Of a DNA stretch of 41,845 bases, positions 3,387 to 30,179 are shown piece by piece; within the stretch, counting starts at the first letter, position 1, and the number at the start of each line of letters is the position of its first letter. This DNA is from a virus. Taxonomy: Duplodnaviria > Heunggongvirae > Uroviricota > Caudoviricetes. The stretch lies in the IMG/VR virus record IMGVR_UViG_3300039314_000292; one strand, written 5' to 3'. Made by a program: the position numbers and the translations under genes. The notes under the pieces are model-generated. The model had not been told where the DNA came from and did no database searches. It was given only the letters and a program-made list of their open reading frames with translations.

Positions 3387-6300
3387 TTAACGTTCTTCCA
3401 GAGACTGAATCCGCTCTTTTATCTTATCCATTTCTCTGCGCTGCCATGCTGCCTCGATATAGAATAAGAGATCAGGTCTGACCCCCCATCTAGATCCTGC
3501 TGGCGTTATTTCAACGCGCTCAATGATGTCTTCCATTACCATCACTGGATTATCATCCTCATCAACAATAATGCTCCCGTCATTATCAGTCAGCGGCATT
3601 TCCCTTTGGCCAGTAATGACGTCATCATATACTGCGGGATAATCGTCATAGCAAAGAAACGCATAGCGGCATGTTGTGCTTTCTTCTTCCATGAGTCCGT
3701 GAGAAATAAGAACATCACGAAGTTGCTGCGCGATTACACCATGATGTATCCTCGCCCCTTCTTCCCCCTTTATAGCGACAGCGTTCAGCCATTTATAAGC
3801 GATATACCTGACGTCACCCCAGGCATCCAGCAATGCTTCGTCAGGAGAGACCGGCTCTGTCTTTAATGTTCCGTCACTGGTAACCACAGGATTGGAGCCA
3901 AGATAAACTGTCGAGAACCTGTTTCCCGGACCACCAAGAGCATTTACATTATCAAGATAAGGTTTAACATCTCCGTTCTCAAAAAGATGTTCGAGTGCGT
4001 TATATACCGCGCGACGTGGAGTACTGCTTCCGGAACCATGCAACGTTATCATTGCACCATCTGCTGAAGACGTTGTTTCACCGCCGCTAACGATTAATCT
4101 CTGAGCGGTAACATCATCAGACGGTACTTTCTTCGCAATAATGGCGTAATTACCCTCAAGTTTGACTTCCGCGCGAACTTGTCCTGATGTACCTGCATGG
4201 ACAGTCAGTGACTGGACGGCAACATCATCTGTGAAATCAACGGGTACAGGAACCGTCCTCACGCCTGACGTCGACATAAAAGTAGGAAGCGTTCTGTTAG
4301 GAGTGGCTCCGTAGACAAAATCCCTTGAAACAAATTCTTCCTGTTTAATTTTCACCCTGAAACAATACAAATCAGCCGGGTGACCATCGTGAACATAAGG
4401 ATATTTTCTGTTGTTATCCCCTATGCTCCATGGGTTTAGAAAGTCTTCCCCACCGAAAATGTAGTACAGCCAGTTGTCTTTGATACAAACTGAACCAACA
4501 CCAACCGCAGAGTTAACTATTCCGCCCTGATAAATCTGATCAGTAACATTAACCCACTCTACATTATCCAGACTCCACTCATTGACGTTAACTCTGGTCA
4601 TAAATGTTCTTGGATAATTTCCTGCATAACGGTTATCAGGTTCTCCTCCTTCCCACTCACCAAATGCGCGCTCACTGCCAAAAATAATCAGCTCATCGCC
4701 AACTTTGGCAAAAGGAAGGTTTGAGTGATGAACATTATTTGGGAAGCGAAGAGAATTCCATGATGTACCTAAATCAGAGCTTCTGTGCAATGAACTACCG
4801 GGTTGAGTACTTAATGTCCCCCTGGTCGTCAGATACAGAATGCCATCATAATATTTTACACATGGCTCAGATGCATTCGCCTCATATTCTGCAGGTATGC
4901 GTCTGCGAACAAAGCTACCAGGAGAACCGAAAGCATCAGAGAAATAGAGTATCCCAAGCTCGCGTGGACCAATATCACCATTATGGTAGCCAACAGCAAA
5001 ACTGTTATCGCTAATCGTCGCAAAACTGTGAATCTCAGTAACAGGAGTGCTTCCGTCAACAAAAGAAGGAATAGTTCCAAGACTGGTTTTTCTCCATGGT
5101 GACGAGTGAAATGATGTACCAAAACTCCAGTATCTACCCTCGTTATTCTGATCCACATCCTGGGTATTTTGCGTCGTAACTGTAAAAGTATTTTTATCAA
5201 TAACAGTAGTCACCGTCATATTCCCGGTAACACCTGTAACACCAGAGTTTGAGAAGTTGACAAAATCACCAGCAAATAATCCGTGATCAGTAATGCGAAT
5301 ATAAGCGACTTGCTGATTTGCTGCTTTCGTTATACCACCATAAACGCGAAGGCTGCGACTCATTGGGCGATCCCACAACTCTGCAACCTGCAGTTTATTT
5401 CCGCTCACGGTCCGCGTCTCAATTACAGCAAAAAGGCGATTTCTGACAACCCCCATACTCATGCAGTGATAGTTAACTGTGGGATAGTTTTCATGTAAAT
5501 CTGTAAGCCATTCCGGCGTTGTCCAGGTCTTCCCGTCATCTCCTGAGCGAACCCATGCAACATGGAGGTTATTTACACCATGGCGGTCTCCAGCCATAAA
5601 AGGCGCATAGATGACATTGTCATATACAAACGTTTTATCCTGCGTCCAGGCGTTGTACCACGGTGTATCTGTAATTTTAAATAACTCTCCCTGGATAAAA
5701 TCTTCAGAAGCATAAAAAAGAGGCTGGCCCGGTATTCTCTCAAATAAAAAACGAGCATTTTTAAATCGACTGACATCCGGAAGAGTTGATACTTTAAAAG
5801 TAAGCCCTAATCCGTCAATTCTATAACCTGGAGATGAGGCTTCAAGGCACGCGCTTATTGCAGTGGAATCGTCATTTATACCATCACCAACAGCTCCAAA
5901 ATCTTTGGGGCTAATAGCATCACGCATTTTATCCTGGAACGTTCGGTACACAGCCCCAGAACCATACTGAATAAACCAACCAAAACCACCAACAACCCCG
6001 GCGATTGCAGCATCGACATAATTACGCATTGAGCGATTATTTACAGCGTCCTGCTCAAATGATGGATCTGCAAGGTTAGAAATTTTGTTTTGCTTTGCAT
6101 CGTAATATTTTGCAAGCAAAGATGGTTTCATCAATGCACGTCTGAACCACCCAAAACATTGCTGGATCAGCATCGTCAGGTAGTCAAAGGCATCTTCATG
6201 CACTTCGGGGAAAAATTTTCCCTGATTGCGAAGGTCTGTCTCCTGCACTACATCAAGCACACGATCTATCGTAATTCGCCATCCAGTAGCAAGCGGAGAC

Positions 6301-7007: not shown

Positions 7008-7096
7008 TTACATCGCACTCCTCTTGTGCCATAGTAATCGGGCACTGGCAAAATCCAGTGCCGGGATTGGCGTCCCGGGTTACTAAGTGGCGCATA

Positions 7097-7118
7097 CCAC
7101 GCCAGACGTGGTTTTTTT
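7097..7118 (+). terminator. putative intrinsic terminator preceded by two strong hairpins
   Basis: CCACG-CCAGA-CGTGG followed by TTTTTTT; upstream hairpins GGCACTGG-CAAAAT-CCAGTGCC (7041..7062) and CCGGGA-TTGGCG-TCCCGG. Confidence 0.5.
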
Positions 7119-7274
7119 ATGCGTTAAGCACAGCTATATCCGAATTATGGTGGGCTGGGCAGGGGTCCGAAAGGACGCCGGTACCACTTAGGCCGGTACG
7201 CCAACCTTGTCCAGTTCACCACCAGTAATTGGCGTTGCGGTGGTGATTAAAATCACTAAGTGGAGATAACCACC

Positions 7275-7985
7275 ATGGCTAATGCTCAAACTGCCATCTT
7301 CAAATTTGAATCTGTTAACCCTATCCGTTCCATCATTATCGATGGCCGACCATGGTTTGTAGCCCAAGACGTTTGTAGTGCGCTGCGTATCCAAAACGTC
7401 ACCCAAGCACTTGAAAAACTGGATGATGATGAAAGGTCTATGTTCAACATAGGGCATGAACATCGTGCAATTTTTGACAGCCGAGTAAAAGAGATCAACA
7501 TTATCTCCGAGTCAGGCCTCTACACACTGATCCTCCGCTGCCGCGACGCAGTGACACCAGGCACTATCCCCTACCGCTTTCGTAAATGGGTTACAGGTGA
7601 GGTTCTTCCTCAGATCCGCCGCACCGGAAGTTACATTAAAAACTCGCTCCCGCAGGAAGAACGCATAAAGATGGTTGCCGACCAGGTAGCCAACGCCACG
7701 GCGTCAGCAGTAATGCAGGCGATGAAGATAGAGAACAAAACCTACAGTGCCCCGCTGAAGCCCGGCTACCGCAGTCTGATTCATTCCCCATCTGGTGTTC
7801 TCGGCCTGACGGAGCACTCACTGCTGATGAATCTGCTGAACCAGTTACAGGAAGACGGGCACGACGTATCGGGCGCGGCGGCGGAGCTGACCACCATGTT
7901 CTGCTACATCGTCGGTGTAAGCAAATGCCTGCGTGATATCCAGACGCACGCGGAGTACATCAACGACAAGGCTGGGTTCTTCTGA
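7275..7985 (+). CDS. Bro-N domain antirepressor-like protein (236 aa)
   Basis: ATG 7275 with GGAG RBS; N-terminal Bro-N signature (FKFESVNPIRSIIIDGRPWFVAQDVCSALRIQN...); C-terminal domain paralogous to 6702..6959. Confidence 0.8.
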   Translation: MANAQTAIFKFESVNPIRSIIIDGRPWFVAQDVCSALRIQNVTQALEKLDDDERSMFNIGHEHRAIFDSRVKEINIISESGLYTLILRCRDAVTPGTIPYRFRKWVTGEVLPQIRRTGSYIKNSLPQEERIKMVADQVANATASAVMQAMKIENKTYSAPLKPGYRSLIHSPSGVLGLTEHSLLMNLLNQLQEDGHDVSGAAAELTTMFCYIVGVSKCLRDIQTHAEYINDKAGFF

Positions 7986-8051
7986 CGGGCGGCGGCACAG
8001 GGATGTGCTTCTGACATAATCATTTGCGGTGTGATGTAGATTCACGTAAGA

Positions 8052-8066
8052 TTACCTTAAAGGTAA
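8052..8066. promoter_or_regulatory. operator-like perfect site TTACC-N5-GGTAA
   Basis: ATTACCTTAAAGGTAAACC immediately upstream of the 8093 operon start region. Confidence 0.55.
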
Positions 8067-8092
8067 ACCATGGGTTTACATGAGGAGGAGAT

Positions 8093-8302
8093 ATGGGATT
8101 TTGGTTCGCTCGTACAAAAACGAGGGATAATGCACCCAGCCCTCAGGCAAAAAATGCAGAAGTTCCGGCGTCAGCGCAGGTTAACAAGCGTGGTGGAGTA
8201 TATATCTCATCACAGCAAATTTCTGAGCTTCCTGAGGTTAAGGAGATGCGTCGTCTCGCTGCTGCAATTGTTAAACAGGATCTTGCCACTGTAAGGAAAT
8301 AG
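8093..8302 (+). CDS. small hydrophilic protein (69 aa), first gene of accessory operon
   Basis: ATG 8093 preceded by GAGGAGGAG; stop overlaps the GTG start of the next gene; chosen over overlapping alternate-frame ORF 8070..8294. Confidence 0.45.
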   Translation: MGFWFARTKTRDNAPSPQAKNAEVPASAQVNKRGGVYISSQQISELPEVKEMRRLAAAIVKQDLATVRK

Positions 8303-9168
8303 TGTTGTTAGCTCTTCTAATTATCCCCATTCTGGTTAGTGGTTATATTATGATAACCGCTAACCAGTATCATTATTTCCGTTTATACCGACATGAAGGC
8401 CAGCTTCTTTATATGAAAGTAGCTGCATTAGGTACATATTGCCTTGTTGCATCAGTAATAATTGCAGCCGCTATAAAATATAAATGGCCTGATTTTCACC
8501 TAGTTCACGATATGGTGGAAACTTTTAATGTAACATCAAAACCAGAAACAGATAGAATTTACATGTGGCTGCTTCTTCTCTCAGCCACATCCATTTGCTT
8601 CTCTTTGTGTTATGTGTCTGTTGTGTGGGTGAAAGATTTTCTTCTTGGTTGTTTTTATAAACGTGATATTTACGAGCAAAAAACAGAGGCAATGAAGGCC
8701 AGAGTACTGCGAAAAACTTACTCGCAAGGTTCTTTAGACTTACTATTGCTTGATGCTATTGAATCGGATCCTAAACGACCAATGTTGATTACTTTATCAT
8801 CAAACAAAGTGTATGTTGGAATAATAAATGGTTCTGGTGAACCAACGGAAAATCAGGGTCCGCATCAGCACATATCTTTTGTTCCTTTAATGTCAGGATA
8901 CAGGAACAAAGAAAACTTATCTGTCACATTCACTAATGCTTATCCAGGAGAAATACAGGTCAAGCGGACTGCAGCAATAAGAGGAATTAGCAGAAAGAAA
9001 GTGCCAGGACTTGAGATCATGGTGTCTATTGACGAAATAAGTTATATATCATGGTTTGATTTTGAAGTATATAAAGCAACAAATAACAAAGTAGAATCCA
9101 GGGGGCACGTTATTCGTGTTACCAAAAATGGAAGAAATATATATCAAAGAAATAGCAAAAAAGAATAG
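8302..9168 (+). CDS. low-GC inner-membrane protein (288 aa): 3 N-terminal TM helices plus about 170-aa soluble domain; candidate superinfection-exclusion/defence protein
   Basis: GTG 8302 with AAGGA RBS; markedly AT-rich versus flanking phage genes; TM segments LLALLIIPILVSGYIMI, VAALGTYCLVASVIIAAAI, IYMWLLLLSATSICFSLCYVSVVWV; terminator follows. Confidence 0.7.
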   Translation: MLLALLIIPILVSGYIMITANQYHYFRLYRHEGQLLYMKVAALGTYCLVASVIIAAAIKYKWPDFHLVHDMVETFNVTSKPETDRIYMWLLLLSATSICFSLCYVSVVWVKDFLLGCFYKRDIYEQKTEAMKARVLRKTYSQGSLDLLLLDAIESDPKRPMLITLSSNKVYVGIINGSGEPTENQGPHQHISFVPLMSGYRNKENLSVTFTNAYPGEIQVKRTAAIRGISRKKVPGLEIMVSIDEISYISWFDFEVYKATNNKVESRGHVIRVTKNGRNIYQRNSKKE

Positions 9169-9190
9169 CCCGCGCTGCGGGCTTTTTTGT
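9168..9190 (+). terminator. rho-independent terminator
   Basis: GCCCGC-GCT-GCGGGC followed by TTTTTT directly after stop of 8302..9168. Confidence 0.7.
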
Positions 9191-9260
9191 GGACGAAACA
9201 AAAGCCAGTGCTACACTCATTGACGCCACATTGAGGTGGCTTATAGATGGAAATTTCACA

Positions 9261-9422
9261 ATGAAAAAAGCATTTGCTGCACTGTTCGTTTTGTTGTCTC
9301 TGGTAGCTTCAACTCAGGCCTTTGCCGGTCGTTGTCAGCACGACAGCGATACCGCCGCTGACGGCTCCCGCTGCGGTGGGCGTTCTGCGGATTCCCGCCC
9401 GGGCGGCGGTGGCATTCGTTAA
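9261..9422 (+). CDS. small secreted Cys-containing peptide (53 aa), hypothetical moron
   Basis: Own sigma70-like promoter TTGACG(9220..9225)-N16-TATAGA(9242..9247); signal peptide MKKAFAALFVLLSLVASTQAFA; very short leader, no clear RBS, so low confidence. Confidence 0.35.
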   Translation: MKKAFAALFVLLSLVASTQAFAGRCQHDSDTAADGSRCGGRSADSRPGGGGIR

Positions 9423-9428
9423 AAACAA

Positions 9429-9444
9429 GGCCGCGAAAGCGGCC
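9429..9444 (-). terminator. rho-independent terminator for the minus-strand 186-aa gene
   Basis: GGCCGC-GAAA-GCGGCC with T-run on the minus strand (A-run on plus); adjacent to palindrome TGTGACATGTCACA (9445..9458). Confidence 0.6.
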
Positions 9445-9458
9445 TGTGACATGTCACA

Positions 9459-10019
9459 CTACATTGATATATGATTCATAAAGTAGCTTAAAGATTTACT
9501 TCCCAGAAAAGAAATTTCTTTTCCTGGATATGTCGCAATAATTGAGCATGACTTATCCCCGTTAGAGGTAACAAATCCTGAATAACCTACTTGTTCTTTA
9601 CCATTTTGTTGCTTGGCTAAAAAGTAGAGGTAGCTTATCTTTTTGCCCTCTGGGTAAAACTCTGCCAAACCAGTATCGGTGATTGAATATTTTATTCTCC
9701 CGCCTTGAGTAACGTTTTCCATCTCAAGTTTAGCTATGTCTTTTCTGTTGTATTCAGCATTGATTTTCCTTTCGAAATCAATGTTGTTTTCAAATGAGTA
9801 GGAAGCAACAGTCTGAATAGATGGGAACACGTTTATCTGGATGCCTCCACAGTCGGCACAGGTATAAAGGTATGAATCAGATGGAATCCCCATAAAAGAA
9901 AACTGAGTTACCTTAAATTTATCGCTATCTCCAAAGTATTGAAGTTCGCATTTAACATTTTGCCCTGCAAAAGAAAATGCAGACATCAATATTGAAACAA
10001 AAAATATAATTGCCTTCAT
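9459..10019 (-). CDS. low-GC secreted protein (186 aa), moron appended to virion-protein operon
   Basis: Signal peptide MKAIIFFVSILMSAFSFAG; AT-rich; starts 2 nt after stop of the 850-aa virion protein gene; own terminator. Confidence 0.7.
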   Translation of the reverse strand: MKAIIFFVSILMSAFSFAGQNVKCELQYFGDSDKFKVTQFSFMGIPSDSYLYTCADCGGIQINVFPSIQTVASYSFENNIDFERKINAEYNRKDIAKLEMENVTQGGRIKYSITDTGLAEFYPEGKKISYLYFLAKQQNGKEQVGYSGFVTSNGDKSCSIIATYPGKEISFLGSKSLSYFMNHISM

Positions 10020-10021
10020 TA

Positions 10022-12574
10022 TTATTTACCTAGTATGAACTGCGATGGTGGGATCAGAAAGTCGTTACCCTGCTCACGCTCAACACGGCGCTGATAACGC
10101 TCAAGAGAGCCTGGGTCAAGGGCATCTTGTATCCGGTTCAATATTAAACCATTCATCGCCGTACGAAGCCAGAACACGTTGAGGAATGGCGTATTGTCAA
10201 GTGCCGTGCGATACCAGTCACCCAAATCTGCATCCCCTCTCGTGGTCTGCTGGAGCAGCGTGATAATGCTGTCAGCGTTCGATGCTGCTGGCCCCATTAG
10301 CGACGTAACCGGCCCGGCCCCCATGCGGTTGACCTCGCCAAACATGAAGTCACCCAAGATGCCAAGACCGCCCCCCTGAGATGCGGCTGCGAGAAACGTC
10401 TTGGCATCTGCCGGGCGTGGTGTTTGCCCTTTCAGCATGAGTTTTGACTGCATGGAGATATAACCAAACATAGTCGCCCAGACAAAGAGGTTTGCAGCAC
10501 CAAGGAAAGCCCCCTTCCCGTTACGTAGCAGCGCATTCGTCAGCGATCCGGTTTTCGACTCACCAAGCCCAGCAGGAATATAACCACGCCCGAATACTTC
10601 GCGTCCTAGTACGTTCTGCATGAAGCTTGCAGTGAACGATTTGTACTGACCAGCGAATCGTATTGCTTCCCCAGCCACCGTTCCTGGCACCGTGCCCATC
10701 TTCATAAACGCCTGCGTGCGATCGCCAGGCTCTGACATGGCGATATTCAGGCGGTCAAGGATGTAGCCGCGCAACTGCCCTTCCAATTGATCGCGTGCGT
10801 CAGCGATAGCGCGCTGCGTTGGTTTGATCCCCTTACTCTCTACATAACCGGCAATCACTTCGTCAGGCACGCCGCGGATGCCGCTGGTCGTCATGAACTT
10901 ACGACCTTCGCTATCGGCCATGTCCATGTTGCGAAAAATTTCCCACTCACGTTCGCCAATACCGTGCAGATCCAGCACGCGTCGCAGGTCTTCCGGTAGC
11001 CGCGCATGAGACTGGTCAGCATTCTTTGCAAGCCAGTTGGTTATCATCATGGCGTTGCTGTTGCGACCGCTCTCGGTCCAGAAGTTCATGAGGTTGTACT
11101 TAAAGAAAAGCTGCTGCGCGCGACCAAGCTTTCCATTCAGCGTGTCATCACCAGATATGCGCCGGATGATTTCCTGCGTCATGGAGTCGGAATAAACTCC
11201 GATAGAGGAAAGGATCTCTTTCTGCTCCGCGCTGTTGTAACGCGTGAAGCGGCCTCTCATAGCACCAAGCAACGCCTGCATAAAATTCTGCCCTTGGTAG
11301 CGCATCTCGGTAGCGGCGATAGGCACGTCGTTAAACGATGAGATTACCGCGCCACCAAGTTGGCTCATACGCAACCAGCCGCGTACAGCCGCCGACGCAT
11401 TGGCCCAGCCTACGCTGCCAGGAATATTTAGCGAGCCGTCAACCTGCGGCATTACGGTACGGTTAATGCGACGCACCTTCGTCATGTAGTCAGCCAACGC
11501 TGCCGGTCTTCCGGATTTGCTGATATCTTCAGCAATGGCGTCCGTCAGGTACTTAAACATGTTCTGTGGGTTAGTGCCCAGTACGCGCATCATGCCCGTT
11601 GTGCGGGCAGCGCTGTTTAAGCCACCAAACAGCGCTTCTCGCAGGCTGCCGGTGCCGAATTGCTGGTTGTACTCGTGCCACGAGATACCATCTTTGAAGT
11701 GCAAAATTCGCTCTTGGCTGGCGCGTTTAGCTGCGTTCGCCGATCCCTTAAAGCCATTCATCCAATCGGGCTTTTCAGATGTAAGATGCACGCCGGAAGC
11801 CAGCCCGTTATAAATGTTACGCATGAACTGCTCGCGGTCAGCCACGCCGTCAAAAGTGCGCTCATCAAGGCGCGGGAGAATAGCATTTCGCCATGCTTCA
11901 TAACCTGCGGCGCGGATCTTCATGATGTCGTGTGACTGGCGCACTATATAGCCCGGCTCTTTGCGTATCCATGCCCCGGCGCGGTTCTCATCAATGCGCG
12001 CAGTTTCCTGCCATTTCATGATGATTTGTGCAGCGCTTACGGATTGCTTTGTCATACCGTCAGTTGACTGCCCGCGCCCTATGCGCCACATTGCATCGGC
12101 AATTTCCCGGTCATTGCTGCCGCTGGCGATGAATTGCACCAGCCCGGCACGGTCAAAATCGTAGTTGATACCGGAATGATACTTGCCGCGCAGTTGCGCC
12201 ACCTCCGAAGATACCGACCGGCGGGCGCCGGTACGCGCATCGTTGCGGCCAACCAGCATTGCTTCAAGCCCGATATCCGGGCGGTCTTTCCAGATAGTAC
12301 GAAGCTCTCTAAGTCGTTGTGCGGCAATACGGGCGTTGATTGCCTTATTGCGAGCCTCAATCTGTTTTGCCAGCATATCGGCATTGCTCAGTTCTTCCGC
12401 TGCGCGCATCGCGGCCTCTTCCAGAGACAGCGCCTCATTGGTCGCCAGAATTCGCCTAGTGGTGTCGTTCATGTCACGCACCAGCGACTCCATCTCATCG
12501 GAAGAAAGCTCGCGACCAGCGGCAGCATTTACACTGCGCTCGCACTGCGTCAAAAATTCGTTTGCTGCCATCAC
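10022..12574 (-). CDS. internal virion / DNA-ejection protein (850 aa)
   Basis: Large protein in podovirus-type structural operon between internal proteins and tailspike region; translationally coupled (ATGA overlap) to upstream gene. Confidence 0.7.
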   Translation of the reverse strand: MMAANEFLTQCERSVNAAAGRELSSDEMESLVRDMNDTTRRILATNEALSLEEAAMRAAEELSNADMLAKQIEARNKAINARIAAQRLRELRTIWKDRPDIGLEAMLVGRNDARTGARRSVSSEVAQLRGKYHSGINYDFDRAGLVQFIASGSNDREIADAMWRIGRGQSTDGMTKQSVSAAQIIMKWQETARIDENRAGAWIRKEPGYIVRQSHDIMKIRAAGYEAWRNAILPRLDERTFDGVADREQFMRNIYNGLASGVHLTSEKPDWMNGFKGSANAAKRASQERILHFKDGISWHEYNQQFGTGSLREALFGGLNSAARTTGMMRVLGTNPQNMFKYLTDAIAEDISKSGRPAALADYMTKVRRINRTVMPQVDGSLNIPGSVGWANASAAVRGWLRMSQLGGAVISSFNDVPIAATEMRYQGQNFMQALLGAMRGRFTRYNSAEQKEILSSIGVYSDSMTQEIIRRISGDDTLNGKLGRAQQLFFKYNLMNFWTESGRNSNAMMITNWLAKNADQSHARLPEDLRRVLDLHGIGEREWEIFRNMDMADSEGRKFMTTSGIRGVPDEVIAGYVESKGIKPTQRAIADARDQLEGQLRGYILDRLNIAMSEPGDRTQAFMKMGTVPGTVAGEAIRFAGQYKSFTASFMQNVLGREVFGRGYIPAGLGESKTGSLTNALLRNGKGAFLGAANLFVWATMFGYISMQSKLMLKGQTPRPADAKTFLAAASQGGGLGILGDFMFGEVNRMGAGPVTSLMGPAASNADSIITLLQQTTRGDADLGDWYRTALDNTPFLNVFWLRTAMNGLILNRIQDALDPGSLERYQRRVEREQGNDFLIPPSQFILGK

Positions 12575-14268
12575 ATCCCCCGGTTAATCATACAGGCGGC
12601 AAATGCCCGGAAAGCGTTGCTCATGCTATTGTCGCTGGCGTCGGCACGAATATCATTGAGTTTCTGGCGCAACGTGGTCGCAAGATCAGGGTTATCGACA
12701 GCGATATCGTCAAGCAGGGCGTTACTCAGGTTGAGCTCGTTATCAAGGTCTGCAGCGGCAGCGGTAATTTCATGATCTGCCTTTTGCGTTTCTTGATAAA
12801 CCCGATCGGCTGTTTCGCTTGCTGGGCGAGCCGTTTCATCAACCTGCCGTGCCGGGTTCTGTATGCGATGGATGGCGCGTTCACGCAGTGCCGGTTTGTG
12901 CAGTTCATAGAAGGGCTCAACATCTGGGCTACGTCCTTCCATCATGTGTGCCAGCGCAGCGCGATACGCCTGCTGGTTCACGTTCCAGTCAGCATCCCTG
13001 ATGGCGCTTGCGGCAGTGCGAACTGCGCCAGCGACCGGCGACATCTGCATGCCGTCCAGGATCTGCTGCGCACGCTCGGAAATGGTGACTTTCAGGTCGT
13101 CTGGGATCTCGCCGCGGGAAATCTGAGACTGGCGCCAGCGCGCCTGCTCTGCTGTCGCGTTCTGCTCCAGCGATGTGTTGATCTCCTGATTGCGTGCAGC
13201 GATGGCGTCTTTCTCGGCCTGAATCTCTTTCAGTGCCCTAGAGCGCGCATCCTTAAACTTCATCCGCTGCCCCTGATACTTTTTGGTGCGCTGCTGCAGC
13301 GTCGCATCAAGCGAGTCAGCATGACGTTGATTAGCCGCAAGCTCGGCACGCAGGTCGGCAACGTTACCGATCTGACCGCTCTGTAATTCCTGCTGGCGCG
13401 CCATATAGTCAGGAACCACGTCGTCATAAGCCCGGCTGTATGCGTAGCTCTCCGCTTCACTGGAAATGGCCGCCGCCAGATCTGCGTTAGCGCCAACCTC
13501 AGGGATATTCACGCCCGCCGGAATGTTGTCAGGCGTTATCACCGGGGTTGGCTGCGCATCGCCAGAAAACGCCGGGGACTCTCCCGTTGCAGCATCGGGA
13601 ACGCGACGCGGTCGCACGATATCGGCGATAAGGCCGCCGCCGGCATGCATTAGACCGCCAGCCATCGTGTTAAAGAAAGTACTTTCCAACGCGTTGCTAT
13701 AGGTGAAGTCGTCACCTTCCGCCGCCGCTGCCAGCCCGGTAAGCGGCACGGTCACCACCGCCTGCGCTGCCCCCATGCGTGCACCAGCAACAAATCGCTC
13801 GCCAAATCGGCCAAGCACAGAAGCCGCCTTTGCTTCTCCAGCGAACGGAACCAGCGCCAGCGCCACGTTACCAGGATCTGCCATTGAACCAGCTAGGCTG
13901 GCTGCGAAATTAAGCGGCGTGGCTACCCATCCGCTCGGTGCCGACATCGCGATCTGCTGGCGTGCCAGAGAATCTTTGCGTTCAGCAATAACATGATCGA
14001 GAAAAGCCTGCGTAACGCCAGAATCTGGCACGTTTATGCTCTTTACGCCGTACTGCTTCAGGAGCTCATCCGCTTCCTGCTTACTGATAACTGTAGAGTT
14101 TGGGTCATTCGCCAGCGAGTCGGCCTGCGCAAAGCGGTAGCCGGACATGACCGGCCCCTCTTCAAATCCCTGCTTAAGGGAAGAAAGCAGCGATTCGCCA
14201 AGCCCTGCTGGCGCGTTGCCAATTGGCTGGTTAATTCCCTGTCCCGGATCATCTGTGTAAATTGGCAT
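12571..14268 (-). CDS. internal virion protein (565 aa)
   Basis: Position and coupling within structural operon; Ala/Gln-rich helical protein. Confidence 0.7.
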   Translation of the reverse strand: MPIYTDDPGQGINQPIGNAPAGLGESLLSSLKQGFEEGPVMSGYRFAQADSLANDPNSTVISKQEADELLKQYGVKSINVPDSGVTQAFLDHVIAERKDSLARQQIAMSAPSGWVATPLNFAASLAGSMADPGNVALALVPFAGEAKAASVLGRFGERFVAGARMGAAQAVVTVPLTGLAAAAEGDDFTYSNALESTFFNTMAGGLMHAGGGLIADIVRPRRVPDAATGESPAFSGDAQPTPVITPDNIPAGVNIPEVGANADLAAAISSEAESYAYSRAYDDVVPDYMARQQELQSGQIGNVADLRAELAANQRHADSLDATLQQRTKKYQGQRMKFKDARSRALKEIQAEKDAIAARNQEINTSLEQNATAEQARWRQSQISRGEIPDDLKVTISERAQQILDGMQMSPVAGAVRTAASAIRDADWNVNQQAYRAALAHMMEGRSPDVEPFYELHKPALRERAIHRIQNPARQVDETARPASETADRVYQETQKADHEITAAAADLDNELNLSNALLDDIAVDNPDLATTLRQKLNDIRADASDNSMSNAFRAFAACMINRGM

Positions 14269-14269
14269 G

Positions 14270-16891
14270 TTATCGTCCTGATTGCTGGCCGTTCTGGAAA
14301 ATGTTAATCAGGTTGTCGCGCTGACTTTCTGCGCTGTATTCCTTAGACTGTCCGGGAGTATATTTCACCGGAGTATCAATGAACTTGGTAATGCTGTTCC
14401 ATACTGATCGGTTGGTTGTTCCCAGTTTCGCCAGATCGTTGAACGGCACCGTAATCGGGTTGCCGTCGGCACCGTTGACGATCAGCCCGTTGAGCATCAG
14501 GGTAAGTCCTGTTTCGTCGCTGTTGGTAACCCACTGCGCATTATCACGAATGCGGGAGATACTCTGCTCACGGTTGACCTCATCAGGTAGCCTTGGGTCA
14601 CCAATAAGCGGCATAATCTGATCTGCTGACAGGTTTTTCAGATACGCATTGGCACCATCGTTAACGTCACGAATATCTATCCCTGCACGATTAGGTAGCC
14701 GCCAAGTGCCATTGGTCTGGTACTGCTCGCCGAGGATGTCCTGATACGCCTGTTTTGCTGCATCAGACGCCGACATTCCGCGCTGCATGTTGATGTAAGT
14801 AAGTCGTTTTCCCTGCTCGTTGAAGTTATTCCACACGGCAGTGCCACCAGGCTGAACAACCATCGTGCCAGCAAAATCTTTCGATTGGTCATTCCATGAC
14901 GAGTCGGCGCTATCCGCGTCGGTTTTCTCAAGACTGCCGCGTAAGTCAGCAGTTTTAACGCTACGGTTTTGCCAGAGCGCATTTGCCGCGCGCGGGTTCT
15001 CGGTAGCCATGACAACCTGCAACGCAGGATAAGCGCTCTTCTGAACCTGCTGCATCACCTGATCCGAGTATTTGCCGAACGACTGCGCCACCGACTGAAT
15101 GGCCTTAACGCTAGATTCCTGCGTGTTGTCAATACGCTGCAGTACATCATTGACCATGGACTCCGGTAAAACTTTTTTGCTCATTATCCCCAGGCGGTCT
15201 TTTTCAGACTGTATGCGGGAAACTAGGTATTCACCAGATGAAGGGTCATTCAGGTACTGCTGGAATGCAGCCTGCACAACCGGAGAGTTTTGTTGCAGCC
15301 ATGCCCCCGGATCCGCTTCCCGCGCCTTCAGTACCTGCCCAAGCTTGACCTTTGCCGATGCATAAAGCTCTGCTTTGTATTTAAAGTCAGGGTCGTTTTC
15401 CTGCGGTGCCATTGCCTGCACGGCGGCGGTACCCTGCTGGACGTTGCCCTGCATAATGGTCTGATAAACAGGTTGTAGCGTCATTGCCTGCTGGTATTGC
15501 TGGAAGGTTTTTTCCATCTGCAGGCGCTCGGCAGGCGCTGCCTGAAGCGGCATAACGGCGGCCCATTCGTGCGCTGAAATAGGCGTCACCTGCTTACCGG
15601 CCTCAATTTTGGATAGGTCGTCCTGCATTCGACTCTGTAGCGCAACGCGACCGGCTGAAGCCTGCATGTCGTACATGCCAGCAACCTTGCTCATCATCTG
15701 CGACTTTTTGTCCGGACTCATGGCGTTCCAGAATGGCTGTGCGATGAGGTTTTCCATCGTCGCAGATCCAGGAATAGCTCCAGCACTGCCAGTTACTTTT
15801 GCCACATAATTGCGCGTCTCGTCGTATGGGATAGCTGCGGCAAACTGGGCGTTACTGACTTCGCCTGTGCGCGGATCGCCAATCTGTTTAATCCAGCCGT
15901 CAACCTTTCCTGGGCCAGCGTTATAGGCAGCTACTGCCAGAACCGGGTTATTGTCGTATTTCTTCATCTGCGCGCCGAAATAAGCTTGCCCCAAGCGGGC
16001 ATTATAGCGCGGGTCATTCAACCATTTATCGCGGTCCCACGGCACGCCAGCAAGGCGGGCAGCTTCGGGGCCAGTATCTTCCGTCACCTGCGCTACGCCA
16101 ACAGCGCCTTTTGGCGACACCAGAGGTGTTCCGTCCTTTCCGTACTGATTTCCGCCACTCTCCTGCCAGATTATTGCAGAGAATAACTGCGCCTCACTCG
16201 GTGTATCGGTTACCTCAATCTTGCCGTTCGGACCCATCATCTGTTGATACATCGGCACATACCACGCCTCCGCCGCACCGTTCGCGGCATTCTCGCGCCA
16301 CGAAACCCAGTTCTGTTCGATCTCTTCCTGACTCTGGCCGTGGGCTTCGCCGTAAGCGATGATGCTATGATATGCCTTCAATCCTGCCTGGTTTGCCATT
16401 GTCGGGTTACGGAACTGCATCGATAGGTTTTTTAGTGTCGCATCCTGCATATCCGCCTCATACTGGCGAACCTGTCCTATTTCGTACCTCCCGGCCTGCG
16501 TAGTGAACTGAATGCGCTGCTGCTGCGCCTGCTGCATGAAAGCATTACGAGCCTGTTCATCCGGCAGCGACATAGCCAGTTGTTCGACCTGAGCATCAAA
16601 CTGCTGCGTATACTCCTGACCTTTTCCAATAGCATTTTTCCCTTTCAGGTTAAGCAATCCTGTTTCAGGATTATTCAGCAGATCACTGCTTATCTGACTG
16701 AGGTTAAGAGATGCCTCCTGAGCCAGAGCGATATTGGCACGCTGTTTTGCCTGACCAAAAACATCAATTGCCTCTGTCCCTGCCCGAACAAAAGCATCAC
16801 CAATACCTGGCTGAGAAAACGTCTGCAAGCCTGCTGACTGAACTCCACGGCTCTGAACCTGACGGCCGGATACTGTTGGTACGACTGGCAT
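14270..16891 (-). CDS. internal virion protein with lytic transglycosylase (SLT) domain (about 873 aa)
   Basis: SLT motifs AIIWQESGGNQ, VGVAQV, AYNAGPGKV; start taken at internal ATG with GGAGG RBS that overlaps the upstream stop by 1 nt (track ORF extends to 16966). Confidence 0.85.
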   Translation of the reverse strand: MPVVPTVSGRQVQSRGVQSAGLQTFSQPGIGDAFVRAGTEAIDVFGQAKQRANIALAQEASLNLSQISSDLLNNPETGLLNLKGKNAIGKGQEYTQQFDAQVEQLAMSLPDEQARNAFMQQAQQQRIQFTTQAGRYEIGQVRQYEADMQDATLKNLSMQFRNPTMANQAGLKAYHSIIAYGEAHGQSQEEIEQNWVSWRENAANGAAEAWYVPMYQQMMGPNGKIEVTDTPSEAQLFSAIIWQESGGNQYGKDGTPLVSPKGAVGVAQVTEDTGPEAARLAGVPWDRDKWLNDPRYNARLGQAYFGAQMKKYDNNPVLAVAAYNAGPGKVDGWIKQIGDPRTGEVSNAQFAAAIPYDETRNYVAKVTGSAGAIPGSATMENLIAQPFWNAMSPDKKSQMMSKVAGMYDMQASAGRVALQSRMQDDLSKIEAGKQVTPISAHEWAAVMPLQAAPAERLQMEKTFQQYQQAMTLQPVYQTIMQGNVQQGTAAVQAMAPQENDPDFKYKAELYASAKVKLGQVLKAREADPGAWLQQNSPVVQAAFQQYLNDPSSGEYLVSRIQSEKDRLGIMSKKVLPESMVNDVLQRIDNTQESSVKAIQSVAQSFGKYSDQVMQQVQKSAYPALQVVMATENPRAANALWQNRSVKTADLRGSLEKTDADSADSSWNDQSKDFAGTMVVQPGGTAVWNNFNEQGKRLTYINMQRGMSASDAAKQAYQDILGEQYQTNGTWRLPNRAGIDIRDVNDGANAYLKNLSADQIMPLIGDPRLPDEVNREQSISRIRDNAQWVTNSDETGLTLMLNGLIVNGADGNPITVPFNDLAKLGTTNRSVWNSITKFIDTPVKYTPGQSKEYSAESQRDNLINIFQNGQQSGR

Positions 16892-17436
16892 TATAATCCT
16901 CCGGGTAATCTGGTTCCTGCTGCTGCCCCGATTGGCGCAGGGGTGCTTTGAGTAAACGGACTCCACGTCCCACCAAACATCTGGTACGCACCGTATGCCT
17001 TCAGAGGCGCAGTGAGCAATGTTGTTGCTGCTCCCACATTCCCCTGTTTACGGGCTGAACTGGCTTCTGCTTTATAGTTGGCAGCCTGAACCTGATAACC
17101 GTAAGCCTCGCGTTGCGCGTTATTCACCGTCGTCAGAGAATCAAGAGCGCCAAACTGGGCAGTGTCGCCAAATATATCCAGCGCGTTACCTGTAGATAAA
17201 TCAGCGCCGGTAGCCCCCATTGTCGCCGCCTGTGTACCAAGCCGCTGTCGGGTCTCTCTGCGCCGTTGCTCAGCTTCAGCGTTACCTCTGTTTATTGCAT
17301 CATTTGCCTGAGCTGTGGCTATATCTGCGTTCGCTTCTGCAACCTTCGAGGCATACTTTCCCTGTTGGTACTGGGTGTATGCCTGAATGCCACTCATGGC
17401 GAGCATTGCGCCACCAGCAATAACCGGATCGCACAT
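16891..17436 (-). CDS. virion internal protein, T7 gp14-like size class (181 aa)
   Basis: Ala/Gln-rich small protein preceding the large internal proteins; operon position. Confidence 0.55.
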   Translation of the reverse strand: MCDPVIAGGAMLAMSGIQAYTQYQQGKYASKVAEANADIATAQANDAINRGNAEAEQRRRETRQRLGTQAATMGATGADLSTGNALDIFGDTAQFGALDSLTTVNNAQREAYGYQVQAANYKAEASSARKQGNVGAATTLLTAPLKAYGAYQMFGGTWSPFTQSTPAPIGAAAGTRLPGGL

Positions 17437-26504: not shown

Positions 26505-26581
26505 GTGGCATTAGCTCAGTTGGACAGAGCAACCGCCTTCTAAGCGGTTGGTCGCAGGTTCGAATACTGCATGCCACGCCA
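26505..26581 (+). tRNA. tRNA-Arg (anticodon UCU), phage-encoded
   Basis: Cloverleaf readable by eye: 7-bp acceptor GTGGCAT/ATGCCAC, D-stem GCTC/GAGC, anticodon stem ACCGC/GCGGT with loop CTTCTAA, T-loop TTCGAAT, 3' GCCA; one T-stem mismatch (G53-A61). Resembles argU (memory). Confidence 0.85.
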
Positions 26582-29788: not shown

Positions 29789-29837
29789 AGTATTCAAACC
29801 CCATCAAATTCATCATGCATAATCTACTCGTGACATG

Positions 29838-30179
29838 TCACACTATTAATTTCGTTTCATGCCAGCCTTTAGTCACCCAGCATTGCGAGTCACCATTACA
29901 CGGGCATGAATTAACTGGAACTCTCTCGCCGCACTTACCGCAACATTTTCTGCTGATCGATTTTATACGCCCGCGCACGCGTGCATCATCCTGGCGGATC
30001 AGTAACGCTATATACTCACCAAATTCGTAAGGCGCACGCCCGGGGCGACGCGTGGCACAGTTACGCTCCAGCATTTCAATTTCCTGAGCATCAAGCACAA
30101 TTTCCAGCTTACGCACACCAGATGCAGCTTGTCTGGCTCTCTGAGCGGCTTTGCGCTCTGCTGCTGATTTAGCCATCAA
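29838..30179 (-). CDS. hypothetical protein with Cys-rich C-terminus (113 aa)
   Basis: Last gene of early (nin-like) block; CxxC...CxC cluster suggests zinc ribbon. Confidence 0.5.
   Translation of the reverse strand: MMAKSAAERKAAQRARQAASGVRKLEIVLDAQEIEMLERNCATRRPGRAPYEFGEYIALLIRQDDARVRGRIKSISRKCCGKCGERVPVNSCPCNGDSQCWVTKGWHETKLIV

Follow-up and report, generated by a model that had tools for sequence, protein, structure and literature searches.

Introduction

In epsilon15 and phiV10, the third ejection gene of an internal-virion-protein operon (operons of this kind in podophages are described in PMC8954989) is followed by one last small cistron, gp18 or p21, whose product is targeted to the envelope and which lies immediately before a terminator and a palindrome. 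We describe here the equivalent position in a viral DNA of 41,845 nucleotides (nt; IMG/VR record IMGVR_UViG_3300039314_000292; the whole stretch is referred to below as the window), an epsilon15/phiV10-like (Uetakevirus) prophage of E. coli that matches phages phiv142-3, HEMP4, TL-2011b, and phiV10. Many E. coli chromosomes hold identical or near-identical copies of the region, and every gene of it is labeled "hypothetical protein" in RefSeq. Two short open reading frames (ORFs) converge at the same terminator and palindrome: ORF-A (9459..10019, minus strand), the last gene of the ejection operon, predicted to encode a 186-amino-acid (aa) precursor of an exported protein, and ORF-B (9261..9422, plus strand), predicted to encode a 53-aa precursor. 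The explanation we favor overall, to which we give somewhat less than an even chance, is that ORF-A belongs to the late operon and ORF-B to a cassette, and that the two, unrelated to each other, would specify exported accessory proteins whose genes meet tail-to-tail at an old ejection-operon terminator.

The likeness of ORF-A to gp18 and p21 is one of position. Those are two-helix membrane proteins of 46–64 aa without sequence similarity to ORF-A, which in its mature form would be a soluble exported protein of 168 aa, and phiV10 differs further in that its gp17 is only ~24% identical to the gp17 type with which ORF-A is linked. The Spackle (Sp) protein of T4, an early gene product, is a periplasmic inhibitor of the tail lysozyme gp5 (PMC7677548). 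Spackle and ORF-A are both phage-encoded proteins with a signal peptide and a periplasmic destination, predicted in the case of ORF-A, and the logic we propose below for ORF-A, that it might stop superinfecting virions from using their cell-wall-degrading entry machinery, would resemble that of Spackle by analogy; ORF-A, however, does not match the T4_Spackle Pfam model, is larger, is predicted to be alpha/beta, and is encoded in the late operon. The exclusion lipoproteins Llp, Cor, and Ltp of T5 and other phages are likewise phage envelope proteins that act on entry, and annotated phage lipoproteins are the best viral fold matches of ORF-A, but neither ORF-A nor ORF-B has a lipobox.

Classical morons (lambda bor and lom, and those of the HK97 type) are the closest parallel to ORF-B, which likewise consists of one gene, equipped with promoter-like and terminator elements and placed between backbone genes, is present or absent in close relatives, and is apparently exported. 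ORF-B differs from them in its GC content of ~0.55, not atypical for the phage, and in belonging to a family that is mainly chromosomal outside the Enterobacterales; ORF-A differs in having no transcription signals of its own. No PADLOC defense model matches ORF-A or ORF-B and, as judged by sequence searches, no described protein family other than unnamed PHROGs includes either of them. Envelope-targeted accessory genes carried by phages are already known, and none of our findings is surprising in kind; what is new is the predicted fold of ORF-A and its strict operon linkage, the breadth of the ORF-B family, and a corrected anatomy for the cassette.

ORF-A as the Last Cistron of the Ejection Operon

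The ATG of ORF-A lies 2 nt past the stop codon of the 850-aa ORF (10022..12574, minus strand) to which it is coupled, encoding a gp17-like third ejection (internal virion) protein (phrog_684, "virion structural protein," E = 1.9e-271). Before it on the same strand come the gp16-position ejection gene (12571..14268) and, at the gp15 position, an ejection gene with an SLT domain (14270..16966), an order that matches gp15-gp16-gp17 of epsilon15. The GC content of ORF-A is 0.355 (0.34 at third codon positions, GC3) versus 0.53–0.58 in the three ejection genes. An earlier note on this DNA had described a 186-aa, low-GC product encoded 2 nt after the last internal virion gene, and the coordinates and composition bear it out.

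Both proteins were judged by eye to begin with a Sec signal peptide (basic n-region, hydrophobic core of 10–15 residues, small residues at −3 and −1). In ORF-A (MKAIIFFVSILMSAFSFA|G) the signal peptide covers aa 1–18 (nt 10019–9966) and divides as MK/AIIFFVSILMSAF/SFA|G, with a 15-residue core, leaving a mature part, G19–M186, that contains four invariant Cys. The signal peptide of ORF-B (MKKAFAALFVLLSLVASTQAFA|GRC...) covers aa 1–22 (nt 9261–9326) and divides as MKK/AFAALFVLLSLVA/STQAFA|G. The n/h/c pattern is kept across both families, with AxA-type sites throughout that of ORF-A. There is no lipobox ([LVI][ASTVI][GAS]C) at the ORF-A cleavage site, the first Cys being six residues past it, nor in ORF-B, whose sequence there reads ...FAGRC, with R at −1. 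We agree with the earlier note that both proteins carry Sec signal peptides; its periplasmic assignment likewise finds support, for ORF-A and for ORF-B, in a signal peptide combined with conserved Cys. Judged by their sequences, these are real, conserved genes with canonical Sec signal peptides.

ORF-A is a full-length match to phrog_11983 (unknown function, E = 1e-130). Sixty columns are invariant among close homologs, and 19 remain so once homologs down to 29% identity join. The family is very small: clustering at 90% identity gives 17–21 clusters in a set of 5.8 billion proteins, and an exhaustive HMMER search of 1.84 billion representatives returned eight family members and no bridge to a known family. 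The earlier note had named homology to a virion component as one observation that would count against it; we saw no Pfam (E ≤ 1), NCBIfam, PADLOC, or PDB sequence match to ORF-A. Weak NCBIfam matches to NlpE, HxsA3, and MarB, which appeared in the searches with ORF-A and ORF-B, were rejected because they are confined to the signal peptides, as was a PDB profile match of ORF-A to T5 Llp (E = 0.037) that covers only the signal peptide.

The position of ORF-A inside the internal-virion-protein operon, its tight coupling, and its long co-inheritance with gp17 could also mean that the protein belongs to the virion or assists ejection, in which case its hydrophobic leader would either be no Sec signal or be cleaved off as the particle assembles. 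We consider this very improbable, given the canonical signal peptide and the family-wide AxA-type sites, four invariant Cys of the sort typical of periplasmic disulfides, the membrane or secreted proteins that occupy the same slot in relatives, and a predicted fold class typical of soluble binding proteins.

Every phage-borne homolog of ORF-A that could be placed directly follows a gene for an 845–855-aa gp17-like protein on the same strand, with a 2-nt gap in close relatives. This arrangement is found in Klebsiella (loci L006-8; 74% identity to ORF-A in K. michiganensis), in Hafnia (L005, 66%), in two lineages with other replication or tail-fiber modules (L090-93, 44% and 40%), and in metagenomic phages (L069-71, two of them at 35%), and the adjacency holds in 16 of 16 ORF-A-bearing viral contigs of IMG/VR. 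The window-type gp17 is 50–90% identical among the lineages that carry ORF-A, and wherever such a gp17 locus was checked (with ORF-A down to 35% identity) ORF-A was present in all but two; in one of these, a Klebsiella prophage (L010), it has been replaced and is not simply absent. The divergence of ORF-A roughly parallels that of gp15-17, ORF-A evolving faster. In five lineages measured, its GC content is 0.31–0.43 versus 0.47–0.58 for its neighbors, or 14–21 points lower, and GC3 is also low; since this holds in all five, we take low GC to be a lasting property of the gene and not a sign of recent arrival. A consensus scan found no sigma-70-like promoter on the minus strand in the 380 nt upstream (10020–10400). 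Nor does synonymous variation drop at the 3′ end of gp17 (0.41–0.43 over the last 20–40 codons versus 0.40 overall), which gives no sign of an embedded conserved promoter.

Synteny, parallel divergence, constant low GC, and the lack of a promoter lead us to conclude, on comparative grounds, that ORF-A is an old, co-inherited last cistron of the late operon and not a recently added moron. ORF-A is probably expressed late in the lytic cycle, and not while the prophage is repressed.

A different proposal, that of the earlier note, is that ORF-A and ORF-B were each gained separately as morons, are active while the prophage is repressed, and alter the phenotype of the lysogen through lysogenic conversion or exclusion. 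The foreign-looking GC content of ORF-A speaks for this proposal, as does the result of a tblastn search of 50,697 deposited phage records, which returned nothing for ORF-A; so, too, does ORF-B, with its two flanking terminators, its polymorphism in related phages, and its presence in several types of phage. For ORF-A, atypical base composition is the one moron trait we find: there is no promoter-like site, the gene follows gp17 by 2 nt in close lineages and is not polymorphic for presence or absence, its AT richness and its divergence fit long residence, and the terminator after it is ancestral (see below). The proposal, as a statement about both genes, seems to us unlikely. Its ORF-B half, a portable cassette, stands; its ORF-A half, as morons are commonly understood, does not, since that gene shows no promoter of its own and follows the window-type gp17.

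The Terminator and the Post-gp17 Slot

Thirteen nucleotides past the ORF-A stop codon, the terminator scan places a G+C-rich hairpin, AGGCCGCTTTCGCGGCCT (9428..9445), common to the two convergent genes; it is followed on the minus strand, and only there, by a T-run (TGTTTTT). Ahead of it in the ORF-A direction lies a 16-mer, TAGTGTGACATGTCAC (9446..9461, minus strand), that contains the 12-nt palindrome GTGACATGTCAC and overlaps the ORF-A stop codon. In epsilon15, TGACATGTCAC lies over the gp18 stop codon, and the same type of hairpin, annotated as a rho-independent terminator, comes right after gp18. By this comparison, the hairpin and the palindrome that precedes it are an ancestral element, the one that terminates the late ejection operon; the earlier note had credited ORF-A with a terminator of its own, but the element is the one found after gp18. 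Since terminator and palindrome are common to the 3′ side of epsilon15 gp18, ORF-A fills the gp18 slot in an ancestral late transcription unit.

A second exact copy of TAGTGTGACATGTCAC is present at 29830–29845 (minus strand), where it overlaps the stop codon of the ORF at 29838..30179. By our own estimate, ~0.005 exact copies of GTGACATGTCAC would be expected in the window by chance, versus the two found. TAGTGTGACATGTCAC may be a module-boundary, recombination, or regulatory site.

The occupants of the post-gp17 slot differ among relatives. In epsilon15 it holds gp18, 64 aa with two hydrophobic helices, and in phiV10 p21, 46 aa, likewise annotated as a small membrane protein. A second gp17 type, ~24% identical to that of the window (phiV10-type loci L002, L003, L015, L016), always has a hydrophobic, apparently two-helix protein of 46–58 aa encoded 9 nt downstream, in parallel with gp18 of epsilon15. 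In the Klebsiella pneumoniae prophage L010, whose gp17 is 90% identical to that of the window, a gene for a secreted protein with a Rap1a immunity domain (7711-8094, minus strand; 48.2 bits, cutoff 27.7) begins 2 nt downstream, and a further secreted-protein gene comes next (7238-7642, minus strand). A metagenomic phage (L070) has a lipoprotein gene after its ORF-A homolog, the product of which appears, by eye, to be related to the second secreted protein of the Klebsiella prophage. As far as predicted topology can tell, the slot consistently holds envelope-targeted cargo that is exchangeable at a precise junction.

The ORF-B Cassette

ORF-B lies in a 300-bp block (window 9158-9457) that runs from terminator to terminator and is 97–99% identical in phiv142-3, HEMP4, TL-2011b, and others. 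To its left, different relatives have YafO toxin, DUF2335, or a 288-aa membrane protein, and to its right Ant/Arc, a membrane protein, or ORF-A. A bidirectional terminator, AGCCCGCGCTGCGGGCT (9167..9183), which lies inside the conserved block, bounds the cassette on the left and also closes the antirepressor operon that precedes it. About 500 of 5426 complete E. coli genomes (~9%) carry the block, 48 of them together with ORF-A. ORF-B is present in ten of the 16 ORF-A-bearing IMG/VR contigs and missing from six; it is absent from epsilon15. It has been seen in three different phage contexts; one copy lies in a Pectobacterium prophage whose tail genes are of another kind, and another in an E. 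coli element that encodes RelB/YafQ and a DUF927 primase. With its own promoter and terminator (both in silico), its polymorphism among relatives, and its occurrence in several backbones, ORF-B is very probably a moron, and it would be expressed independently of phage late control. As a promoter, a 5′ hairpin, and an ORF, it would make a compact, portable expression unit.

The phage phiV10 has no ORF-B, yet positions ~5001-5061 of its locus (L003) match the last ~20 nt of ORF-B together with the terminator and the palindrome (window 9400-9460). This match points either to loss of the cassette or to a recombination joint held in common.

The earlier note placed on the strand opposite ORF-A a 53-aa, Cys-containing peptide, and this is what we find: the predicted mature peptide of 31 aa, GRCQHDSDTAADGSRCGGRSADSRPGGGGIR, has two Cys that form a C-x12-C loop (C25–C38), followed by GGRSADSRPGG. 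It belongs to phrog_14503 ("membrane associated protein," moron category, E = 2e-40) and to a family of 57 clusters that carries the NCBI name "transmembrane anchored protein," in which a signal peptide has probably been taken for an anchor. The mature peptide is nearly invariant, while the signal peptide drifts.

The small size of ORF-B, and its inconsistent names and occasional extension to 77 aa from an upstream GTG, might suggest that one or both ORFs are chance reading frames or annotation artifacts. The chance of this is negligible, and the pattern of conservation, as read from the alignments, refutes it. Against eight relatives, 12–16 of 25 core codons of ORF-B differ with only 0–5 amino acid changes, which implies strong purifying selection, and up to 16 of 25 codons have changed with no amino acid change; its ATG-MKK start is conserved, whereas the frame upstream is not. 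For ORF-A there are the invariant columns noted above (60, or 19 with homologs down to 29% identity) and a confident fold. The 77-aa form itself, which begins at the GTG at 9189 (phrog_3117), was rejected because the added residues lack conservation and would make the signal peptide internal.

A pattern scan of 185,579 species genomes for the design of the family, a signal peptide and then a C-terminal C-x4-D-[TR]-A-[AS]-D-G-S-R-C-G-x-R-[AS]-x3-R-P-G-G, gave 57 loci. The family ranges over Mesorhizobium, Rhizobium, Agrobacterium, Bradyrhizobium, Methylobacterium, and Devosia, the Nostocales and other cyanobacteria, Vibrio, and Bacteriovorax. The alphaproteobacterial and cyanobacterial homologs that were checked (Agrobacterium, Mesorhizobium, and Anabaena) lie in non-phage chromosomal settings, among genes for ferrochelatase, LysR, and polyprenyl synthetase. 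No neighboring gene is conserved over the 57 loci, which makes a maturase or transporter partner unlikely. NCBIfam and PADLOC searches with ORF-B gave no family match, none of 30 diverse members matches Pfam, and no PDB sequence matches the family profile. The family would represent an unrecognized, phylogenetically broad set of Sec-exported, disulfide-looped peptides of ~30 residues for which Pfam has no model.

We speculate that the ORF-B peptide has a conserved component of the envelope as its target, or else that it binds a metal ion; an envelope target conserved over such a range, if present, would be of general interest. A more specific possibility is that ORF-B acts in the periplasm as a small peptide that binds metal or calcium, with an Excalibur-like D-x3-DG-x2-C loop, and not as a ligand for a protein target. 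The loop resembles the Excalibur motif DxDxDGxxCE, its residues D30-x3-D34-G35-S-R-C38 are invariant within the disulfide loop, and His27 is near-invariant in enterobacterial members. We think this improbable, however: the motif in ORF-B reads D-x3-D-G-S-R-C-G, none of the 30 diverse members matches Excalibur (PF05901) even at E ≤ 10, ORF-B has no relative in the PDB, and just two acidic positions are invariant.

For the start of ORF-B transcription we propose, from in silico evidence, a promoter on the plus strand at 9190..9217, composed of a −35-like TGGACG (9190-9195), a 16-nt spacer, a TG (9209-9210), and the −10 hexamer TACACT (9212-9217). By eye, a TAnnnT hexamer is present in all 15 enterobacterial cassettes compared, fixed at 5–9 nt ahead of a hairpin that in the window reads GCCAC-ATTGAG-GTGGC (9225..9240, plus strand) and would form the 5′ end of the ORF-B mRNA. 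The hairpin is present in 14 of the 15 cassettes, with z scores of −1.9 to −4.7. In its alignment 88% of cells pair, and four of the five pairs have changed on both sides (e.g., GCCAC/GUGGC, GCCGC/GCGGC, CUGC/GCAG). No shuffle among 500 reached the observed covariation score, and slid registers are only 25–56% paired; the helix is short, and the structure was derived from the same sequences that tested it. Transcription would begin ~7 nt after TACACT, and the mRNA with a stabilizing stem-loop. A 5′ stem-loop of the ompA type is known to stabilize mRNA.

The earlier note had placed the promoter farther downstream, at TTGACG-N16-TATAGA (9220-9225 and 9242-9247; 9220..9247, plus strand). Its hexamers are indeed present and 16 nt apart, and an independent promoter, as the note proposed, is plausible; the assignment of these particular hexamers is probably wrong. 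TATAGA ends in A where a −10 element almost invariably has T (position 6), and for this reason the consensus scan did not report the site. In addition, related cassettes have TGAAG/TCAAAG and TACACA in place of its hexamers, and a transcript that began ~7 nt past TATAGA would start after the Shine-Dalgarno (SD)-like GGA at 9249-9251. Taken together, the conserved TAnnnT box and the covarying hairpin probably fit the ORF-B promoter better. The note had further stated that there is no operator; it overlooked the inverted repeat GCCAC-N6-GTGGC (9225-9240), which lies between its two hexamers and which covaries like an RNA hairpin.

Between the hairpin and the SD-like GGA, which itself precedes the ORF-B ATG, stands a conserved CTACACA-like box (CTTATAGA in the window, 9241-9248, with equivalents in L009-L024), common to all 15 cassettes compared, the element that had been taken for a −10. 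A reading of the CTACACA/GGA region as a CsrA site was rejected as a poor consensus match. An Rfam scan of 9100-10100 gave nothing but a sub-threshold Trp-leader match over the terminator at 9167.

Predicted Fold and Possible Role of ORF-A

AlphaFold was run on full-length ORF-A with 14 close homologs and again on the mature protein with four distant homologs added. The second run gave a model with a predicted local distance difference test (pLDDT) of 83.5 and a predicted TM-score (pTM) of 0.82. In this model ORF-A is a PsbP/Mog1/DcrB-like alpha-beta sandwich, an assignment of fold class and not of family membership, with which the Foldseek result agrees. Its structural matches, with scores in parentheses, are cyanobacterial PsbP (11.6), SciW of the Eag/DUF1795 group (10.0), Mog1 (9.8), PA0094 (9.7), LpqN (9.3), Tsi3 (7.9), DcrB (7.9), TplEi/Tli4 (7.5), and PA3488/Tli5 (6.6). 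Among viral models (BFVD), only two phage lipoproteins match at E ≤ 0.001. ORF-A stands apart from the PsbP/Mog1/DcrB/DUF1795 (Eag) superfamily, which includes Tsi3, Tli4, and Tli5, in that it shares 5–13% identity with these proteins and is matched at the sequence level (E ≤ 1) by none of the Pfam models of the clan (PsbP, DcrB, DUF1795, Tli4_C, and others). In addition, DcrB has a lipobox and ORF-A does not, and no type VI secretion system (T6SS) effector gene is adjacent to ORF-A. Periplasmic proteins of this fold are binding proteins; several plug peptidoglycan- or lipid-degrading toxins, and some are T6SS immunity proteins.

We speculate that ORF-A, made with the late genes and exported to the periplasm, would be disulfide-bonded through its four invariant Cys and act there as a binding or inhibitor module. 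It might neutralize the ejection apparatus, or the SLT lytic transglycosylase, of further virions of the same kind and so protect the envelope of the infected cell; the cell would thereby exclude superinfecting phage or resist lysis from without. Such a late-made periplasmic binder or inhibitor, which protects the envelope or excludes a superinfecting phage, is a possibility that we put forward by analogy and quite tentatively. A role directed at the entry machinery is favored because ORF-A is linked to one ejectosome type, because the operon encodes an SLT domain, and because inhibitors or membrane proteins occupy the slot in relatives. If ORF-A does bind the ejection apparatus, it would offer a tool from nature with which to probe and inhibit the periplasmic stage of DNA delivery by podophages, a stage still poorly understood, and might help explain exclusion among the many Uetakevirus-like prophages of E. 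coli, Salmonella, and Klebsiella.

Several points weigh against this reading and its wider setting. In temperate phages, the known exclusion genes are as a rule active in the prophage state; ORF-A looks like a late gene, and a protein made only late would not protect a lysogen. The first AlphaFold run yielded a pLDDT of 44 and an unusable model. The fold matches, at 5–10% identity, hold at the level of the superfamily only, and neither of the top ones, PsbP and the Eag chaperones, acts as an inhibitor; fold alone therefore does not amount to "immunity." The exchange of ORF-A in the Klebsiella prophage L010 without a change of gp17 makes a strict pairing of gp17 with ORF-A less likely. The most distant ORF-A homolog (29% identity; L072, 1263-1829) lies outside phages, beside TraI_2 and MPTase-PolyVal genes and with intergenic regions of its own, possibly on a conjugative element. 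On the ORF-B side, the promoter and start are predicted, and the 5′ hairpin could instead be a protein-binding palindrome or operator. Literature searches turned up no paper on ORF-A or ORF-B.

The same fold suggests another function, that of an orphan immunity-type protein directed against the peptidoglycan- or lipid-degrading toxins of competitors (T6SS effectors), in which case ORF-A would be a fitness gene, as the Rap1a-domain gene of L010 may be. This strikes us as distinctly unlikely. The sequence of ORF-A belongs to no immunity family; its neighbors encode ejection proteins, one with an SLT domain, and no T6SS effector; a gene of the late operon would be no shield for a lysogen unless there is expression we have not seen; and the near-exclusive tie to one gp17 type is not expected of a generic immunity gene.

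An extension of the superinfection proposal would make the post-gp17 slot a dedicated site for self-directed entry blockers. ORF-A would then be the co-evolving periplasmic "immunity" partner of one ejectosome type, the proteins with two transmembrane helices would act in an Imm-like way at the inner membrane for the other gp17 type, and Rap1a-type inhibitors would be interchangeable cargo. We regard this as doubtful; if true, it would place an effector-immunity-like pair inside a phage and define a new class of superinfection exclusion, or of protection from lysis from without, for podophages, and it would open a way to study the action of ejection proteins in the periplasm.

Neighboring Genes

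On the plus strand, Rfam matches to isrK (67.7 bits) and C4 antisense RNA (66 bits) at 7042-7226 lie directly before a BRO-N antirepressor gene (7260..7985). Together these constitute a P1 immI-like c4/ant control module at the head of the plus-strand unit that terminates at 9167-9183. Farther along this unit, a 69-aa ORF (8093..8302) overlaps a 288-aa ORF (8302..9168) of low GC content (0.36) whose product is hydrophobic near its N-terminus. The two ORFs have matches in phrog_5739 and phrog_3630 and none in Pfam or PADLOC. Since related prophages carry a YafO toxin or a DUF2335 gene at this place, 8093-9168 is a second variable cargo slot, possibly occupied in the window by a defense gene. 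The prophage also contains a tRNA gene at 26505-26578 (plus strand, 62.9 bits).

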